Shown in pieces: positions 3,001 to 41,754 of a stretch of 64,000 nt of DNA. Every line of letters starts with the position of its first letter. Within the stretch, counting starts at the first letter, position 1. The stretch covers positions 23,432-87,431 of IMG/VR virus record IMGVR_UViG_3300045988_088152; one strand, 5' to 3'. The stretch comes from a virus. The notes beneath the pieces are model-generated. The model saw only the letters and a program-made list of their open reading frames with translations. It was not told the DNA's origin and searched no databases. The translations under genes were made by a program, and so were the position numbers.

Positions 3001-3741
3001 TTTAGATAATACGCGATTTGCAAAATCTTCAAATTCTGCTTTAAGAGCCTGTTGCTTTGCTTCTAGGCTCTCCATATATTTACTGTTTTCTTGTGCCGCA
3101 GAACCAACCGACTCTAAGGCTGTTTTAGTTGCGTCAGCCGCATGATCAAAGTTCTGCATCACACTGGCAAGGACTTTATATTGATTCTGCCCCGCGATAG
3201 TATCACCAAGAGCCGTTCTTTGTGCATCTGTCATAGAATCCCATTTGGGCTTCAATTCAGATAACACATCAAATGTACTCTTTAAGCTACCATCTACATT
3301 TTCTACTGTAATACCATATTCTGCAAGAGCATCTTTATTCTTTACAATACGAGCTGCAATCGTCGATAAACCTCTGGCAACCTGACTACTGCGCCCTTGC
3401 ATGATTTCTGTACCGCTAGTTACGAGACCTATGACTTGTTCAAATGAATTACCATAAGTAGCCATACCGCTAGCAGCAATTTCCATTGCTTGTGATAGGT
3501 CATTAGTACCCACACTGAAATTGTTTGCTACTTCGTTGTATGCATCAATAACATGAGTGGCAAAACTAGCGTCCTCACCAAATGCACGAATCTGTGAAAC
3601 AATAGAGGCGGCTGCATCTTCTGCTGAAACAGCCGTATCAGCTACGTTCTGATAAGAAGCAGCAACTTTTGCAAGCATAGCGGCATCTGAATCATTAAAT
3701 CCACTTTTTCGGAACATAGATGCTGCCGATACCATCTCTGA
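1..3741 (-). CDS. tail tape measure protein, main body (proposed 3' exon); partial, runs off left edge
   Basis: My own minus-strand translation is open from 3741 to position 1. It is absent from the ORF track because it has no stop in the window. It reads SEMVSAASMFRKSGFNDSDAAMLAKVAASYQNVAD...GTEIMQGRSSQVARGLSTIAARI, which resembles the TP901-type tape-measure core. A hydrophobic Gly-rich segment, long Q/E/K-rich stretches and a Gly8 run (1321-1344) follow. The + strand ORFs at 224-3145 are antisense shadows. Confidence 0.85.
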
Positions 3742-3761
3742 CGGTTATAAATTATCTAATA

Positions 3762-3965
3762 TTACAATTTCCCCCAACGCCAATCATCGTCTAATCCCCA
3801 TTCATTGATTCGCCGCTCTTCCTCTTTGGTACGGCTATCAATATGATAAGACGATTGATTATTTTGTTGATTATCATGCTTTCCAAATAAACCAACTATT
3901 ACACAGTATAATGTCCAGATACCAATAGCTGGAAAAATCAACATAATAAGCATTAAAGCAAACAT
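3762..3965 (-). CDS. 67-aa single-pass membrane protein carried inside the intron-like element
   Basis: GGAGG lies 8 nt upstream of the ATG at 3965. The product is MFALMLIMLIFPAIGIWTLYCVIVGLFG followed by a polar tail. It has its own promoter at 3992-4020. Confidence 0.5.
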   Translation of the reverse strand: MFALMLIMLIFPAIGIWTLYCVIVGLFGKHDNQQNNQSSYHIDSRTKEEERRINEWGLDDDWRWGKL

Positions 3966-3991
3966 GATAGATACCTCCTTTAAGTATCTAT

Positions 3992-4020
3992 AACATAGCA
4001 CATATTAGATAATTTGTCAA
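3992..4020 (-). promoter_or_regulatory. sigma-A type promoter (TTGACA-N17-TGcTATGTT) inside the intron-like element
   Basis: It shares the TTGACAAAT core with the early promoters. It is the only such motif inside the 20 kb late module apart from a weak one at about 20415. Confidence 0.5.
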
Positions 4021-4359
4021 GGGGTTTTCAATCCCTTCCTGAATATTTCTTCACCCTATATGTTTGGAAGGTCGCCCTGTATATTCGATTGACACACCGC
4101 TCATCACGGCTTCGCGCCCAATCTGCCCTTTTATGATACATTATTTATCATTGATTCTTTAGGTTTTTCAACCATTGAATCATCCTTATCGTCTTTCTGC
4201 TTTCGCACTAATTCATTGTTAATAATGAATGATTTTCACACTCAGGCATATCTCATCCTCATGTTGTAGTGATAAGGCTCTTGAGGCTTTCAAGGGTTTA
4301 GGGGCTGTTCTCTATGCTGCTTTACCATCGCAACATACCGGCTCAGACCGATTTGGTTT

Positions 4360-15830: not shown

Positions 15831-17408
15831 TTATTCTAATGAATCTCGGCTTGCTTCCCCAGATTCGGTCAGTGCGGTCGAATTTTCTCTTGGTCTACCA
15901 CCTTCGTTATCTGAGCCGCCCTTGGTTGTATTGGTATTTTTCAAGAGCTGTGTATATTTATCGATCCAACCTGTATATTTACTCTCAGCCATCATTGCTT
16001 CAAATACCTGCGGCTGATAACCAGATACGGATGCCCATGTCTGCATAGGTAGAACAATACCAGAATCAGCCATTTTCTTCACTTTGTCAAATCGAGCTTC
16101 ACGCTCAAATGGGTAATTAGACCCGTCAAAGATAAATTTCCACTTATATTTCTTTGTTAGCTGATTAACATAAAATTCTAGGAAATTGCTAAACTGTGGA
16201 TATAGCGGCTTCATAGTCTGGTACATATCATTAAGCCCAGCCTCAATCTCAGCATTGGACTGTCTATCAGAGCTATAAATAACACGGCTCACACCAGACC
16301 CAACACCGGCAGATGTAGCAAGTTGAGTGGAATACATATCTGTATTCTTATCCTCAAACTGATAGAACTTAATATTTTCAAGCGGCATTGCGGCAAGTTT
16401 GGACAATGATCCAAGACCAGCCTTTGCCTTCTGCATGAATCCCCCCAGTGTCTTTGGGTCAATTGCAAACTGATTCGCTTTTGTGCCAGATTTAGCCGAA
16501 TCAAATAGACGAATTTCACCAGCTAAAATAGCATAAGCTGACGCAATGTCCTTATTATACTGCAACTGAGCAATATCATCATTAGCAATGGCATTCTTCA
16601 GAAATGGCGCTAAGAAGGGCGTATTATTAAATGTACTAGGATTCCACTTAAATGCCCATGCGCCATCACTAGGTGATGTTTGCGTCCACATAGCATATGC
16701 GCCATTTCGTCTATTTAATGGATTTGTAGGGCGATAATTTTTGAACGCTTCTTCCTCAGAGCCAAATACACGCTGATAATATTTCTTAAATGCTGGGTCA
16801 AATCCATTGATGTCTACACCAGCTTGTAGGAAATAGCTCATGTCAAAATCAAATAACATACCCTTTTCCCAATATCCGGTAAGTAGGCATCTATCTTGTG
16901 GCAAAATCTGTAGGGCGAATTTCATTCCTTTATTGCCCCACTTCGTCTTTCTGAACCAAGTGAAATATGTCTCATGCGTCACAATTTGTGCTACAACTTT
17001 ACCAAATTCAGCCTTGTAGTCAAATTTGTTCAAAAAATCATACACACGCCGCTTATCCTCTTGGTATGTGCTTGATTCATAGTCACTCTGAGTAAAAGCA
17101 TTGATGCAAACAGGCTGTAAGTCAAATGCTAGAGCATTGCAATATGCTTGTAGAGTTCTGGCAAATATCATATCCCAGAATTTCATATATTCCATATAAC
17201 CCTGAATTTGCTCTGAATTTTCCTTATATTCAGCAAGAGCCTTGCGAATTTTATCAGAACTAGGTGTTTCTGGGTTGTTGTTCAAACTCTGTAATAGTTG
17301 ATTGCTCAACATTGGAGACCAAAAGCCAAACTGGTCATATGCATATAATGCTTGTGCAAATTCCGTTACGGCTTGAGCCTGTTCAAATGTTACTAGCGGT
17401 TCTGCCAA
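15831..17408 (-). CDS. putative portal protein
   Basis: 525 aa immediately downstream of the terminase. It has a TTG start preceded by AAAGGAGGG. Size and position are typical of a portal. Confidence 0.6.
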   Translation of the reverse strand: MAEPLVTFEQAQAVTEFAQALYAYDQFGFWSPMLSNQLLQSLNNNPETPSSDKIRKALAEYKENSEQIQGYMEYMKFWDMIFARTLQAYCNALAFDLQPVCINAFTQSDYESSTYQEDKRRVYDFLNKFDYKAEFGKVVAQIVTHETYFTWFRKTKWGNKGMKFALQILPQDRCLLTGYWEKGMLFDFDMSYFLQAGVDINGFDPAFKKYYQRVFGSEEEAFKNYRPTNPLNRRNGAYAMWTQTSPSDGAWAFKWNPSTFNNTPFLAPFLKNAIANDDIAQLQYNKDIASAYAILAGEIRLFDSAKSGTKANQFAIDPKTLGGFMQKAKAGLGSLSKLAAMPLENIKFYQFEDKNTDMYSTQLATSAGVGSGVSRVIYSSDRQSNAEIEAGLNDMYQTMKPLYPQFSNFLEFYVNQLTKKYKWKFIFDGSNYPFEREARFDKVKKMADSGIVLPMQTWASVSGYQPQVFEAMMAESKYTGWIDKYTQLLKNTNTTKGGSDNEGGRPRENSTALTESGEASRDSLE

Positions 17409-17646
17409 ATTTCGCCCTCCTTTCTTTGTTTTATTGTTTATATATTAGAGCAGTTAGATTATGGACTTCATTAACGTATGCCAAAGTTCATTGAGCTACT
17501 TATCCTCCCTATCCGCTCGTTTTATATTTTTGAGTGTTTTTATTTTCGGCTTTTGACTAAGCCTAAGTTGGAACTTGGATTCCACACAACCCTAATAGTA
17601 CCTCCACGACAACACACCAACATAGTAGCCGCTTCATAGGCAAATA

Positions 17647-19491
17647 TCAATAGACTAATTGAATGGAGTCTATATCAAACTCATCTTCTTGCAACTGTTG
17701 TTGCCATGCGTTCTCAATCAAATCAATAATATAGTTACCATACATGATAGTCACAATTCTATCCTTTGTTCCTGTGCGCGGTTCTTCCAATTTGATTTTA
17801 TCCTGCTTGATAACCGTCTTTAGATTAACTGCCTCTATAACCATCATATCAGTTTGACCATACGGCTCAAGCTGATTAGCTAATTCTTCAGCAGTGTATT
17901 GATAATATTCTCCACTATCTGTTAGCTCGTTCTGATAGTCTTGCATAGAAATAAGAAATTTCATATTGTTAGTTTCAAGCTGTTTGCGTAATGACAACCA
18001 ACCACTACTGTTTAATTCAGGTGTCGCAATAACAGGTATTAAGCAAGGTACTGCGTTCTTATCAACCGTTCTACTATGATAATCGTCAACTTTAGCTTGA
18101 GATACTACTTGGTATTTATCAGCAAGCCCAAATCCACGAGAATCCCATCTTGAGCCTAAATCTGGACGTAGTAATGGTTCTGTCAAATGATTAAATATGA
18201 CTTCTCCACCACTTCTTCCATCGAATGCGGCATAATCAGCGTCATAGACCCACCATAAATATCTAAATCTATCAGACGCGCCTATTGTATCAGAAGCATC
18301 ATGCCCCTCTATATAGTCAACGTGTCGTTCAAATCTATTCTTTTTGCTATTCCAATGCGCCGACATTAACGTTATAATGGTATTGTCGTTTTTTGTGCAA
18401 CCAGTGGTGTTCGCAAAAGCAATATCCATGACTACTAACCGTATCTCGTCCTCTTTCTTTTCTGGAAAGTCAGGTTGTTCACCAGCAAAAAATTGTAATG
18501 CAGTGGGCGGACGGAAACAATGCTCAATGATTTGATTCTCTTTGAAAGATTTTAGATTAAAGAACGCATCATCGCCCTCTGAAATCATCTCGTTCAAATC
18601 TTCCATTCTAAAGTCCATTTCGCCGCCAGCCTTACCATTCCAATAATCAGCCCACGTCTTAAAACCATTATCAATAGCCATAAATATATCACCGGCAAAA
18701 ATATTACATCTTACTTTGGTGTCGGTAAATATACGAGTAAATGTCTTTTTGAATAATAGCCAAAACCACTCAAACTTATATCTAGCAGATGTGATATATA
18801 TATGTTGACATTCCTCTTTCCAACGTGGATTATTACCATATACAGGATTACTAAGATATTTGGCTTGCCTTGGATGCGCCATCTTCTCAAAGACGGAATC
18901 AACCATGCCTTTTTTCAACAAGCGGGCTTCTTCATATGTAAGAATTGTTGCTCTTGGGCCACGAGAGCTATCTTGACACGGTAATACACGCAAAGTAGAA
19001 CCGTTAAGCTTGTTCTCTATTCTATAACCATCTTCTGGTTTAGTAATAACCAAATATTCATGCTCATACATATATAAGAGATATGGCGATAATTTTTTAA
19101 TCAATTCATCCCTTATTTTATCTTCAACCATCTTGTTTGCCTGTGCAACAGTTGATGATGTAATTACCGCCTCTGTGTAAGGATAAAGATTCATCTTTAC
19201 AATATTGCCTAGACCCACAATGAAGGTTTTGGATAAGCCACGACAACATATTGCAAAAAATACATCGGATATGCCCATCAGATATATCATTATCATCTGA
19301 AATGGGCGCAACTTAATACCAAGAACTAAATCAACATATATATGCCAATTCCGGCGTAACTAGAATAAAGTCAGCCACTCTATAGCATTTTCCTCTTTCT
19401 TTGCATCTTTCATTGCGTTTTCTTTTGCTTTTGCCGTAATTAGGTGGTTTCCAAGGAACTTGCGTCTCAAGCCCCCCATCTGACTTTTCAT
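17647..19491 (-). CDS. terL: terminase large subunit, with one in-frame TAG at 19362-19360
   Basis: ORF track 17647..19311 has a Walker-A-like CRGLSKTF and a nuclease-type MDIAFANTTG. The same frame is open upstream to an ATG at 19491 with an SD (GGTGGTGA). Only one TAG interrupts it. The conserved LGIKLRPFQ helix spans the ORF-track start. Confidence 0.7.
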
Positions 19492-23356: not shown

Positions 23357-25930
23357 CTACTGTTTTAACATGTCTCCCGTGCGGACAGGTGGAGCTTCAC
23401 GCGATTCAGTACGCCGCTGATTATCCGCCTTCTTATAGCATTCCTCTGAGCAATAATGCTGACATACATCGCGCGGCTTGAATCGCTTGCCGCAAATGGG
23501 ACAAATTGGATTGAGTTGCGCCGTATTGATTCTCAAATTTTCTACAATCGTCCAACCAAAACAAGCCCACAGCATTTTCTTATTACTTGATTTTTTGACC
23601 GTATATAAATAAGCAACTAAGCTATTAACCACAACATCTAGCGGCTCATTGCTATACTCCACTATATCTTGTGTTATGCGGCGATATTTATACAAATCGT
23701 CTTCATTGATATGTGGGTCATCGCCATAATCGAATCGGCGCTGATTCCATATCCACCAATTATACCTCTCTATGATTGGTGAATTTTCTCTAGTGGTATA
23801 ATCAACTGATTTATTTATCAGCATCGTCCAGTCAAATTTTCCAATCTTGTTATTATAGCGGATTCTGGAAGCAGGGATTTTTGTCGATATACGATTCATT
23901 GTGGAATTGTTAGGAGGTTCTACTTGGGTATCTGGGTCTTTGTCTTTGGCATATTGAAAGAAATTTGGAACACGAGCTTTTGTATATTGCTTGATAGTGT
24001 TATTGATTTGTTTCGGTCGTTCTGGCAGCCATTGCGTCTTAGCGCAATCTATAACAGCGTTGTTCTCGAAACAAAGCCATTTTACTACATCTAGCTCTTC
24101 TTGTGTGATTTCGCCACTGTTCCATATTTTTGTAATATTGTTACTAACCGGTCCTATATTGCCTTTAGTATAAGCATTGACCATTCCATTATACATGCTG
24201 TCTGGATTTAATAAGCCGCCCTTAGCTTTTTTGAGGTCATATGCTAGAGGAACTATATCTTGCATATTGTGTTTGGCGCAACTTGTCAACGTTCTATCTT
24301 TTACTACTAGAGCCTTATCCCCATCTACGTCAAACATAAGGTAACGTGAAATAAGGTCGTGGCAACTAGTATATATACACTTAGTTCCACCAAACCAATA
24401 ATCAAGCTCTAAGTTGCGCCGATTCGTCCTAATTGCCCATTCTCGATATAGGTGCGGCGAACGTAAGCAAGCCAATGTTTCTTCGTCTCGATATTGATTT
24501 GTATATACATCGCCATCTGCAAGCAGTCCTTGTGGGTTTTGTTGTCCTAAAAATAACCATTCGCAAAACGCATATAGATCGGGCGCTAAGAATAGATATT
24601 TTCCATTTACTCTAAGCCGCCCACCTTTGGCTTGTTTAACTAGGCTTTTTTTAGTCTGTTTCAAAATTTCTCGGTTATATGAATCTTTGAACAGCTCAGG
24701 ATATATCAGCAACGCCTCTTGCATAGCTGATTTATACCGGTTATTCTCTGTTGCGCCAAGTAGCCTCATAGTAACTTGATAATCATTACCAACATCATCA
24801 ATCTCTTGCGCCGTCTTAGAGATGATGCGGTCAATCTCATTATCTGTCATATCGCTCAATGTCTGCAACATCTGATAGTTGATGCGGCTCTTTGGAATAT
24901 AAGGCTCCTCTATATTGCAATAACAAGCATTGCATCCAAAATTTTTGAATCGCGCCTTATAGCAATCCCACGAATCATAAAATTTCCATAGCTTGAATTG
25001 GCTCTTTGTGAATATATACCGTATATCTTCCTCTATAATTTTATGCTCATTTCCATAAATATCTGTTACAGTTGTCTCCCCACCACATTTCTCTTTGATA
25101 AACTTGTCAAATGGAAATGTAACAAGCAATCCCTTTACCCATGGCATACGTACCATTCTTGTTGTTTCATCAAGCATAATACCGCATCCGTCCATATGAG
25201 GAATAACCGTATTTGTCATCTCGCGTTTAATTTCATACGTAACACCATCAATATGGTCAACCAATCCCGGAACAGCCGTTTCCCAATCATCTACCACAAT
25301 TGATTTGTCAATGTCAAAATCTTGCCAAACATCTGTAGCAGAGTTCATAAGCGCCAAATAAGCAAGGAACTTGTTTTGATTCATGCCTCCCCGCTCATTG
25401 ATTTCATCTATGGTCAAGCCGCACATCAATTTTTGCTCAATGCGCTTAAACGACGATTCTTTGACAAATACAGCTCTTTTCGTTCTTATCTGTCCTGCTG
25501 ATGCAGTAAGGAACACATATTTTTCACCATTGTAAATAAATCCTTGACGAACTAGATTATTAAATACTTGAAAGAAAAATACGTTGATAATGAACAGCTC
25601 ATCTGTCAATTTGAATGGCTCAAGACCTAAGCTGCGTGTTAAATCGGATTCAAATAGATTAACAACCGTCTTATCTGTCACAGCATCTTGTCGCAATTCT
25701 CTAGTTACGTTTCGATTTACTGCATCATCAAGCAATTCAGATAACCGTGCCTTTTCTTTTTTGAGTAAACGATTTACCGACTTGATGCGCCAATCTGGCT
25801 TTCCGTCATCCTTCCATCGCTTACGCAACGAATATAACCGAACGAGCCGAGTATGTAATATCATTTCGTTATCGTCATAAAATGCGCTAGTATCTATTGA
25901 ATGCAAATAAATTTGCGTCTGTAGGCTCAA
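23357..25930 (-). CDS. YonO/RDR-like single-subunit (two-barrel) RNA polymerase
   Basis: 857 aa. It has LMFDVDGDKALV (a DxDGD metal-binding motif), an upstream ASAGQIRTKRAVFV resembling the RDR-family SxSQxR block, and a C-terminal CPICG...C..C zinc ribbon. The TTG start is coupled to the upstream small ORF. Confidence 0.6.
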   Translation of the reverse strand: MSLQTQIYLHSIDTSAFYDDNEMILHTRLVRLYSLRKRWKDDGKPDWRIKSVNRLLKKEKARLSELLDDAVNRNVTRELRQDAVTDKTVVNLFESDLTRSLGLEPFKLTDELFIINVFFFQVFNNLVRQGFIYNGEKYVFLTASAGQIRTKRAVFVKESSFKRIEQKLMCGLTIDEINERGGMNQNKFLAYLALMNSATDVWQDFDIDKSIVVDDWETAVPGLVDHIDGVTYEIKREMTNTVIPHMDGCGIMLDETTRMVRMPWVKGLLVTFPFDKFIKEKCGGETTVTDIYGNEHKIIEEDIRYIFTKSQFKLWKFYDSWDCYKARFKNFGCNACYCNIEEPYIPKSRINYQMLQTLSDMTDNEIDRIISKTAQEIDDVGNDYQVTMRLLGATENNRYKSAMQEALLIYPELFKDSYNREILKQTKKSLVKQAKGGRLRVNGKYLFLAPDLYAFCEWLFLGQQNPQGLLADGDVYTNQYRDEETLACLRSPHLYREWAIRTNRRNLELDYWFGGTKCIYTSCHDLISRYLMFDVDGDKALVVKDRTLTSCAKHNMQDIVPLAYDLKKAKGGLLNPDSMYNGMVNAYTKGNIGPVSNNITKIWNSGEITQEELDVVKWLCFENNAVIDCAKTQWLPERPKQINNTIKQYTKARVPNFFQYAKDKDPDTQVEPPNNSTMNRISTKIPASRIRYNNKIGKFDWTMLINKSVDYTTRENSPIIERYNWWIWNQRRFDYGDDPHINEDDLYKYRRITQDIVEYSNEPLDVVVNSLVAYLYTVKKSSNKKMLWACFGWTIVENLRINTAQLNPICPICGKRFKPRDVCQHYCSEECYKKADNQRRTESREAPPVRTGDMLKQ

Positions 25931-39694: not shown

Positions 39695-39787
39695 GGCGGT
39701 GTCGGTTAATGGTAAGCCAGCTGGCCTATACCCAGTTTAGTCCTAGATTGGGGCAAAATCAGAGTTCGACCCTCTGCGCCGCTACCA
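39695..39787 (+). tRNA. class II (long variable arm) tRNA with atypical anticodon loop CCUAUAC (UAU if read canonically)
   Basis: Hand fold. Acceptor GGCGGTG/CGCCGCT. D arm GGTT-AATGGTA-AGCC. Anticodon arm GCTGG-CCTATAC-CCAGT. 23-nt variable arm with a GTCC/GGGC stem. T arm CAGAG-TTCGACC-CTCTG. ACCA is encoded. Confidence 0.65.
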
Positions 39788-41677: not shown

Positions 41678-41754
41678 GGCTCAGTACCCCAATCGGCAGA
41701 GGGAGCGGATTCAAAATCCGTAAAGTGTGGATTCGAATTCCACCTGAGCTACCA
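41678..41754 (+). tRNA. class I tRNA, anticodon CAA by canonical reading
   Basis: Hand fold. Acceptor GGCTCAG/CTGAGCT. Anticodon arm GCGGA-TTCAAAA-TCCGT. 5-nt variable loop. T arm GTGGA-TTCGAAT-TCCAC. ACCA is encoded. Confidence 0.65.

Follow-up and report, generated by a model that had tools for sequence, protein, structure and literature searches.

The DNA analysed here, referred to as the window, is a stretch of 64,000 nucleotides (nt) from a virus (IMG/VR record IMGVR_UViG_3300045988_088152, positions 23,432 to 87,431 of that record). Coordinates are those of the window, and all features lie on its minus strand unless stated otherwise. The locus in question is a tape measure gene interrupted between codons 133 and 134 by an insert of 618 nt (4359–3742; first base A 4359, terminal G 3742), which is very likely, as judged from sequence comparison, a group I intron carrying a looped-out and independently expressed membrane-peptide cassette. 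Exon 1 (4758–4360) comprises 133 codons and ends in ...GREVARTG; its extent follows from the open reading frame (ORF) 4758–4312 and from the domain match of the joined protein. The frame of exon 1 ends at a TAG (4314–4312) inside the insert. Exon 2 (3741–1) starts with SEMVSAASMF..., is open for 1247 codons or more and continues past the edge of the window. Within exon 2, a G/C-rich stretch at approximately 1290–1330 encodes eight consecutive glycines (...SGGGGGGGGSSS...). The bounds of the insert were set by tblastn of relatives and by the empty site of a related locus, L021.

The original prediction, made from the letters of the window alone, held that the tape measure frame stops at TAG 4312 and resumes at 3741, and that excision of the insert joins the two parts in frame as a TP901-type tape measure. 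Both statements were borne out. After in-silico excision the junction reads ARTG/SEMV (a slash marks the exon junction here and below), as in the uninterrupted homologue. The protein joined at codons 133/134 matches TIGR01760 (tape_meas_TP901; residues 84–406, 98 bits) and PF10145 (residues 124–317), in each case as one stretch spanning the junction. L021, which has no insert at this codon, reads ...VARTG/SEMVEAATQFRKSGF... (VARTG/SEMVEAA) without a gap, and the more distant homologues L022 and L023 are collinear at the junction. The predicted ligated-exon junction in RNA is ...AGAACCGGU/UCAGAGAUGG..., the predicted read sequence across it GCAAGAACCGGT/TCAGAGATGGTATCG, and the predicted junction peptide of the spliced tape measure ARTGSEMVSAAS.

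A protein-guided scan of viral contigs yielded 22 related loci, 17 of which hold an insert of 616–800 nt at exactly this codon (tblastn); every one of these 17 begins with AAACCAAATCGGTCTGAGCCGG and ends in G. An invariant 22-mer was present in 44 viral contigs and in one contig of a metagenome-assembled genome (MAG). The contigs bearing it gave 38 distinct complete introns of 601–1066 nt, and a core-motif scan added five more copies with changed 5′ ends. At least 40 distinct copies occupy this tape measure site in gut phage contigs, and the source samples named in the records are gut metagenomes. The only match in genome collections was L068 (SFEA01000039.1), a 20.7-kb contig of a ‘Bacteroidales’ MAG; it may be a mis-binned phage fragment, since the strong Shine-Dalgarno (SD) sites and TTGACA/TATAAT-type promoter fit a host of Firmicutes type better. 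The ribozyme part of the insert is 89–96% identical between phages (compared with L002, L011, L033, L047 and others), against about 55–65% for the adjacent exon DNA and 30–60% for the cargo part, and identity falls sharply at the splice sites. Tracts of exon co-conversion beside the intron were tested for and no gradient was found. No second copy of the 3′ core of the intron was found in the window in a search with filters off.

The fold of the insert was evaluated by scoring a full structural model, including the P3 pseudoknot, on a MAFFT alignment, with 500 shuffles and slides by 1–3 columns as controls. RNAalifold applied unaided to 35 distinct cores recovered P1, P2, P4, the P5 extension, P6, P7, P8, and P9. 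In the full model, 98.1% of cells were paired, both-side changes were seen in 34–35 of 70 pairs, and 232–233 cells were compensatory; none of the 500 shuffles was as good, and the controls slid by 1–3 columns reached at most 44% paired cells and at most 6 pairs with both-side changes. Together with these covarying pairings, the recurrence of the insert at one and the same codon, with identical ends, in at least 44 viral contigs is far beyond chance.

The ends of the insert are tied to the exons by P1 and P10. The end of exon 1, ACCGGT (4365–4360), can pair with GCCGGT (4342–4337), 12 nt into the insert. In the model, P1 (4364–4338) joins exon CCGGU (4364–4360) to the guide GCCGG (4342–4338), with U4360·G4342 at the 5′ splice site and a small ACC/GGU hairpin in the loop. 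P1 pairs are 100% paired in 21 variants, the splice-site pair being U·G in 18 and C–G in 3. Two pairs show compensation between exon and guide (CG20/GC1 and CG19/UA2): exon ACUGGU occurs with guide GCCAGU in L074 and L077, and exon AGCGGU with guide GCCGCC in L078 and L079. The P10 guide UCUGA (4347–4343) pairs with UCAGA (3741–3737), the first five bases of exon 2, which are UCAGA, or UCGGA with a U·G pair kept, in every copy. Relatives show free variation in the adjoining Arg codon but fixed wobble positions where the exons take part in P1 and P10. The P1 and P10 complements and the terminal G at 3742 had all been read correctly in the original prediction.

Within the insert, the P2 hairpin UAUGUUGC/GCAGCAUA (4337–4313) includes the in-frame stop codon of exon 1, and 5 of its 8 pairs are compensatory. 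The 5′ strand of P3, GCCC (4305–4302), pairs with GGGC (4077–4074) and forms a pseudoknot with P7; pair 65–369 changes from C–G to U–A in six sequences (CG29/UA6). A nested pairing of the same GCCC with GGGC at 4119–4116 was rejected, since it shows a one-sided change only, in contrast to the compensation in the pseudoknotted P3. The P4–P5 domain (4296–4117) is modelled with P4 as CCC (4296–4294)/GGG (4119–4117), J4/5 as AAA, and P5 as GCCU (4287–4284)/GGGC (4128–4125), followed by a P5 extension with the stem CCUUAUC/GAUAAGG (4277–4271/4190–4184). The extension holds an internal hairpin (4264–4238), UGC-GAAA-GCA (4207–4198), a GAAA-capped hairpin (4181–4153), and optional hairpins at 4230–4211 and 4151–4133; two GAAA-capped hairpins are thus present, in line with the tetraloops noticed earlier. 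The layout (J3/4 AAA, P4, J4/5 AAA, P5, internal loop, CCUUAUC stem) parallels that of canonical introns of the same phages. This register (model B) is preferred and shows a G–C to U–A exchange in L053; P4 as CCCUU/AAGGG (model A) is a possible but less consistent register, given the L053 changes and the canonical layout.

In P6 (4115–4092; GCG..CCG/CGG..UGU, loop UGAUGAG), CCG/CGG is replaced by UCC/GGA in about half of the sequences. P7 (4088–4040) is formed by U4088, a bulged C4087, and GAAUA (4086–4082) with UAUUC-A (4045–4040), and encloses the 3′ strand of P3 (4077–4074) and P8 (ACCUU 4072–4068/AGGGU 4057–4053), with GAAGAA as J8/7. At the third pair of P7, A–U, G–C, and C–G are all seen; pair 361–436 is AU26/GC9, G359–C438 is the same in all sequences, the bulge is at nucleotide 358, and pair 357–439, which closes the helix, is UA28/CG7. 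Known group I introns bind guanosine at a site of this geometry, a G–C pair beside a bulge in P7, and the P7 predicted here has that architecture. All five pairs of the P9 hairpin AAGGG/CCCUU (4037–4019) are compensatory. The helices P3 to P9 and a predicted guanosine-binding pocket, looked for in the fold, were all found, with comparative covariation behind the architecture. Several other candidates were dropped on comparative data. GAACAGCCCCUAAAC had been a candidate for the R element and ACAUAUAGGGUG, which is the 3′ strand of P8, for the S element; P7 as UGUAU/AUACA falls in a hairpin missing from L008 and L018; the hairpin CUUGA/UCAAG has a partner position that varies freely without compensation; and AACCCUUGAA/UUCAAUGGUU as P4 is not conserved on its 3′ side.

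Several results link the family to recognised group I introns. Within the P5 extension, 48 nt share 87.5% identity with their counterpart in an intron of another gut phage contig that is positive for the Rfam group I model RF00028 (Intron_gpI). A covariance model, R1, built from P6–P9 of the present family aligned P6, R, S, and P9 in register with the RF00028-positive intron of L019 (24 bits, E = 2e-4), and the R-like UCGAAUAUACA and S-like GAAGAAAUAUUC line up with the canonical R and S of an RF00028-positive intron. R1 also scored 41–44 bits on intermediate relatives in L021 and L079. These carry ORFs of 306–384 amino acids (aa) with weak PD-(D/E)xK-type matches, located after P9 in L021 and upstream of the matched P6–P9 core in L079. 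The tape measure genes of relatives (L004, L005, L010, L013, L019, L020, L021, L070, and L079) hold up to four further inserts each, at codons 103/104, 161/163, 204/205, 238, 251/252, and 257/258. The eight of these that were scored are canonical RF00028 introns (60–89 bits), and some of the further inserts hold ORFs of 250–384 aa with weak PD-(D/E)xK-type matches. The tape measure gene of the window has one intron only. Hairpins P7.1 and P7.2, between P7 and the 3′ strand of P3, define subgroup IA, typical of phage group I introns; here P7 and the P3 strand are separated by only 4 nt (UACA, 4081–4078), without P7.1/P7.2, while the canonical neighbour L001 has hairpins there. Taken together, P1, P10, the terminal G, P2, P3/P7, P4–P6, P8, and P9, supported by the alignment of the copies, and the R1 link to RF00028-positive introns leave little doubt that the insert is, as first proposed, a group I intron that would have to be spliced.

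Downstream of P9, the strand AAAUUAUCUAAUAU (4015–4002) is the exact complement of AUAUUAGAUAAUUU (3762–3749), and the two form a P9.1-like helix of 14 bp. The 3′ strand starts at the last base of the stop codon of the cargo ORF (3762) and is followed by a 7-nt tail, AUAACCG, ending in the terminal G. Across the family the P9.1 segments fall into 12 sequence classes, with complementarity preserved inside every copy; helices average 12.8 bp, compared with 6.9 bp for shuffled and 7.7 bp for non-cognate partners, and G·U-compatible substitutions are present. These data support a P9.1-like helix that would loop out the cargo and set the 3′ splice site beside P9, as expected of an ORF-bearing peripheral loop.

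The 5′ strand of this helix doubles as the spacer of a putative sigma-70-type promoter (4020–3992), composed of TTGACA (4020–4015), a 17-nt spacer, TG (4000–3999), and TATGTT (3997–3992). The −35 box overlaps the 3′ strand of P9, and the −10 box is TG-extended. It is the best promoter-like site between 3000 and 5500. The TTGACA-N17-TATGTT element and the SD had been pointed out in the original prediction, and both are kept in the family: in 38 of 38 complete introns, TTGACA is separated by exactly 17 nt from a TAnnnT −10 box that is preceded by TG at −15/−14 (TTGACA-17-TGnTAnnnT), with nine different −10 hexamers and many spacer sequences among them. TTGACA is retained even in subfamilies whose P9 stem is separate from the promoter. 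A sigma-70/sigma-A promoter with an extended −10 predicts this pattern of conservation. Next to it, the leader hairpin AUAGAUACUU/AGGUAUCUAU (3991–3967; strands 3991–3982 and 3976–3967) covers the SD (AAAGGAGG, 3981–3974), and its 5′ strand directly follows the −10 box. The first 8–10 bases past the −10 box pair with the SD or the start region in most subfamilies, although the pairings differ by subfamily (UUAACC/GGUUAA in L007, UGUCUC/GGAGGCA in L053). We infer that transcription starts at the usual 5–9 nt past the −10 box; such a transcript would lose most of the 5′ strand of the hairpin.

The cargo gene (3965–3762) encodes a 67-aa protein whose single transmembrane helix is N-terminal and whose charged tail ends in EWGLDDDWRWGKL. 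The single-pass membrane ORF noted earlier is therefore present, with a small correction of its limits: it runs from ATG 3965 to the stop codon at 3764–3762. Each of the 38 complete introns encodes one to four SD-led proteins of 60–110 aa, with one to three N-terminal hydrophobic helices and a charged tail of 35–61 aa; a [DENQ][WYF]G motif near the C terminus was found in 12 of 14 cargo proteins examined. For a set of 13 close homologues of the window's protein, the ratio of nonsynonymous to synonymous change (pN/pS) was 0.31 over the full length but 0.04 in the 20 C-terminal residues (pS 0.47), which points to a real gene with the tail as the constrained part. The transmembrane and linker parts are highly variable, and cassettes are swapped between copies. 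Introns of 799–1066 nt (L002, L006, L033, L038, L040, L049, and L058) hold tandem arrays of two to four paralogous membrane-protein genes behind a single promoter, which suggests cassette duplication and exchange.

Homologues of the cargo protein form 57 clusters, all unnamed and all in the context of the tube, RuvC, and tape measure genes. A profile of the peptide family gave only nine matches among 1.84 billion representatives, with no wider family, and ten diverse cargo proteins had no significant family match in Pfam, NCBIfam, PHROGs, or PADLOC. AlphaFold2 modelled the window's peptide as a single long helix with a low-confidence tail. A homing endonuclease (LAGLIDADG, GIY-YIG, HNH, His-Cys, PD-(D/E)xK, or EDxHD) would mark a mobile group I intron, and none was found here; the only SD-led ORFs in the 38 copies are membrane proteins without a nuclease family match. 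The earlier suggestion that the cargo is a promoter-driven membrane peptide and not a homing endonuclease is upheld by all 38 complete copies and by the purifying selection on the peptide, and it is likely that the cargo is an independently expressed membrane protein.

A mechanism can be proposed from these elements. On the late transcript of the tail genes, the ribozyme would fold through P1–P10 with the P3/P7 pseudoknot, and the 14-bp P9.1-like helix would loop out the cargo and bring the 3′ splice site to the core. Splicing would then join codon 133 to codon 134, and the tape measure would be read from a single uninterrupted mRNA. In the related L021 intron the corresponding loop is occupied by a nuclease-like ORF; here it would hold a promoter, a leader, an SD, and the gene of the 67-aa single-pass membrane protein. 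Host RNA polymerase presumably transcribes this cassette independently of late transcription. The leader hairpin would mask the SD on read-through pre-mRNA and could not form on mRNA initiated at the promoter, and the peptide could thus be made without ribosomes disturbing the ribozyme.

Several observations weigh against this explanation. The search with the Rfam group I covariance model went against the original prediction: RF00028 gave no match on the window, neither at the gathering threshold (50 bits) nor at E ≤ 10, and none on the shortest relative, L036, and on L078, which has a canonical GACUAU/AUAGUC P7, it stayed below threshold (11.6 bits, E = 3.5). Group I membership therefore rests on comparative structure and on our own covariance model. 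Three contigs (L007/L055, L018/L026, and L046) have ACCGGC for ACCGGT, giving C–G and not U·G at the 5′ splice site, and a C at this position should slow the first splicing step, as in Tetrahymena mutants. All three belong to the subfamily with a 110-aa, three-helix cargo. The exact P4/P5 pairing is ambiguous, two models fitting equally, since P4 and part of P5 are invariant. UUGACA (4020–4015) is the exact complement of UGUCAA (4094–4089; P6 3′ strand/J6/7), and both are invariant in the family, so that the conservation of TTGACA could be partly RNA-level, perhaps through a tertiary pairing. A moron is an added transcription unit in a phage operon that has both a promoter and a terminator of its own; there is no terminator-like site between the cargo ORF and exon 2, and the cassette would therefore not be a complete moron. 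The RF00028 result and the C at the splice site in three relatives also favour the view that the insert is a dead intron remnant or an unspliced moron. The tape measure would then be made as a product of 148 aa, ending at TAG 4312, and a second one from the ATG at 3735–3733, which sits two codons into exon 2. Inspection of the sequence revealed no SD before this ATG, however, and the break interrupts a conserved domain that homologues lacking the intron have in one piece. The core helices, including the exon-guide pairs of P1, have been kept by compensatory changes in more than 40 lineages, and the fixed exon wobble positions next to a free Arg codon are likewise at odds with an unspliced insert, which we regard as very improbable. 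The perfect 14-bp inverted repeat around the cassette (4015–4002 and 3762–3749) and the mosaic cargo region, far more variable than the ribozyme, could instead be taken as signs of a DNA-level mobile unit inserted into an ORF-less intron, with the repeats as transposition ends. Here the 12 sequence classes are telling: the repeats differ wholly between subfamilies yet are complementary in each copy, which RNA pairing predicts and shared transposase-binding ends do not. Moreover, the G·U-compatible substitutions occur, no transposase is present, and the 5′ repeat is constrained to exactly fill the 17-nt promoter spacer; we give a mobile unit of this kind hardly any credence.

Two proposals concern what the cargo does. 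Our best guess on function, offered tentatively and compatible with the spliced intron and its cassette, is that the cargo is a moron-like factor made early that excludes superinfecting phages or blocks genome entry. It is a small protein with an N-terminal transmembrane segment and its own promoter inside a tail operon. Its variable transmembrane and linker parts, its swapped cassettes, and its arrays of two to four paralogues are typical of arms-race genes. It also resembles HK97 gp15, which is encoded beside the tape measure gene and whose effect depends on the incoming tail (PMC3594210). Against this, the searches of Pfam, NCBIfam, PHROGs, and PADLOC revealed no similarity to known exclusion, defence, or moron families; the most constrained part is the probably cytoplasmic charged tail, not obviously facing an incoming tail; and the phage, with its own DNA polymerase, helicase, and RecJ, looks virulent. 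The other proposal is that the cargo acts on the membrane for the phage cycle or as a toxin, that is, as a holin- or antiholin-like protein, in host takeover, or as an addiction-type toxin favouring the intron. One to three transmembrane helices, a short charged tail, and a size typical of holins and type I toxins would fit, as would the strong constitutive-type promoter with an SD and the apparent gating of translation by the leader hairpin. Family searches gave no holin or toxin match, though, the conserved element is the [DENQ][WYF]G motif of the soluble tail and not the transmembrane segment, and no antitoxin-like antisense RNA was seen, no search having been made for one. We consider such a role unlikely.

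In the window, the tape measure gene follows a RuvC-like resolvase gene (5262–4762; PF02075, 26.6 bits) located in the tail module, which ends 4 nt before the start codon of the tape measure gene. The gene order of tube, three small genes, RuvC, and tape measure is kept in all relatives. The phage encodes a portal protein, its own DNA polymerase, a DnaB-like helicase, and RecJ, and a megablast search of 12 kb against phage GenBank gave no match. The head-gene module contains a structured RNA, a drum RNA, at 17529–17642 (minus strand; Rfam RF02958, gathering threshold 43, score 55.9 bits), flanked by the portal gene (15831–17408) and a 554-aa ORF (17647–19311). ARAGORN called a 93-nt tRNA-Ile(TAT) at 39695–39787 and a tRNA-Leu(CAA) at 41678–41754, both on the plus strand; Rfam supports the tRNA-Leu only, and the tRNA-Ile(TAT) call could represent an intron-containing or a spurious tRNA.

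The near-constancy of the ribozyme across highly diverged phages may reflect horizontal spread without co-conversion or very strong constraint. It is conceivable, if rather less than probable, that this lineage has swapped a homing endonuclease for a hypervariable membrane cassette, at times expanded into arrays, driven by a host-type promoter. The intron would then serve as a splice-out ‘safe harbour’ for early accessory genes within an essential late gene, with the benefit of the cargo, for instance in keeping competing phages out at genome entry, driving its success; the sharp contrast in identity between ribozyme and exons would mean spread without an endonuclease, e.g., by reverse splicing or recombination. 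Phage group I introns are usually regarded as selfish elements, either empty or nuclease-bearing, and here a whole lineage carries membrane proteins under selection. If splicing and independent expression hold, introns can be vehicles for accessory genes within essential genes, the same bases can encode both an RNA structure and a DNA promoter, and an endonuclease-free intron can stay nearly unchanged across highly diverged hosts. In practical terms, the standard Rfam model misses this class of intron, so that split tape measure genes of this kind get mis-annotated as two genes plus small hypothetical ORFs.

Most ingredients of the system have precedents. IStrons of the CdISt1 type, in which an intron is combined with IS605 genes, show that a group I ribozyme can carry non-endonuclease cargo and still be removed from the host mRNA; their cargo is transposition machinery that moves the element, whereas the present cargo has no recognisable mobility function. 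Literature searches for phage group I introns with membrane-protein or other non-endonuclease cargo returned nothing relevant, and what we have not found described are the conserved promoter-driven membrane-peptide cargo and the host-type promoter built into P9/P9.1. Tape measure genes with group I introns have been described in prophages of the Bacillus cereus group (TMP-IVS1-3) and in Lactobacillus phage JCL1032 (PMC2504315). As in those cases, the intron described here lies in a TP901/lambda-like tape measure gene, there are several sites per gene, P1 and P10 are adapted to the site, and a homing endonuclease is missing from many copies; such ORF-less introns have been proposed to spread by reverse splicing (PMC2504315). 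The known introns belong to IA1/IA2, are found by standard models, and are ORF-less or carry GIY-YIG or HNH genes. The present one, in contrast, has no P7.1/P7.2, is missed by RF00028, and always carries a promoter-driven membrane-peptide cassette.

For the cargo, the closest parallel is HK97 gp15, a small exclusion protein of the inner membrane, whose gene lies between those for the tail chaperone and the tape measure and whose effect depends on the incoming tail (PMC3594210). Both are small membrane-protein genes in a tail operon with their own promoter, a putative one in the present case, and the present cassette, like gp15, would be a horizontally transmitted add-on. The HK97 gene, however, is an intergenic YebO-family gene that has a terminator of its own and is expressed from a prophage, whereas the present gene is borne by an intron within a coding sequence, lacks a terminator and detectable homology, and occurs in an apparently virulent phage. 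For the expression scheme, the closest parallel is provided by the T4 introns in td, nrdB, and nrdD (I-TevI/II/III), where the promoter of the ORF lies inside the intron and a hairpin hides the ribosome-binding site on read-through transcripts; transcripts from the internal promoter start too far downstream for that hairpin to form (PMC2988022). The present intron would share this scheme, with a putative internal promoter, a hairpin that covers the ribosome-binding site and may gate translation, and an ORF looped out, as in T4, from a peripheral helix. T4 uses its middle or late phage promoters to express a homing endonuclease, which also represses itself; here a putative promoter of host sigma-70 type, with an extended −10 and embedded in P9/P9.1, would drive a membrane peptide. 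The order of expression is the reverse of that in T4, the interrupted gene being late here and the cargo presumably early.

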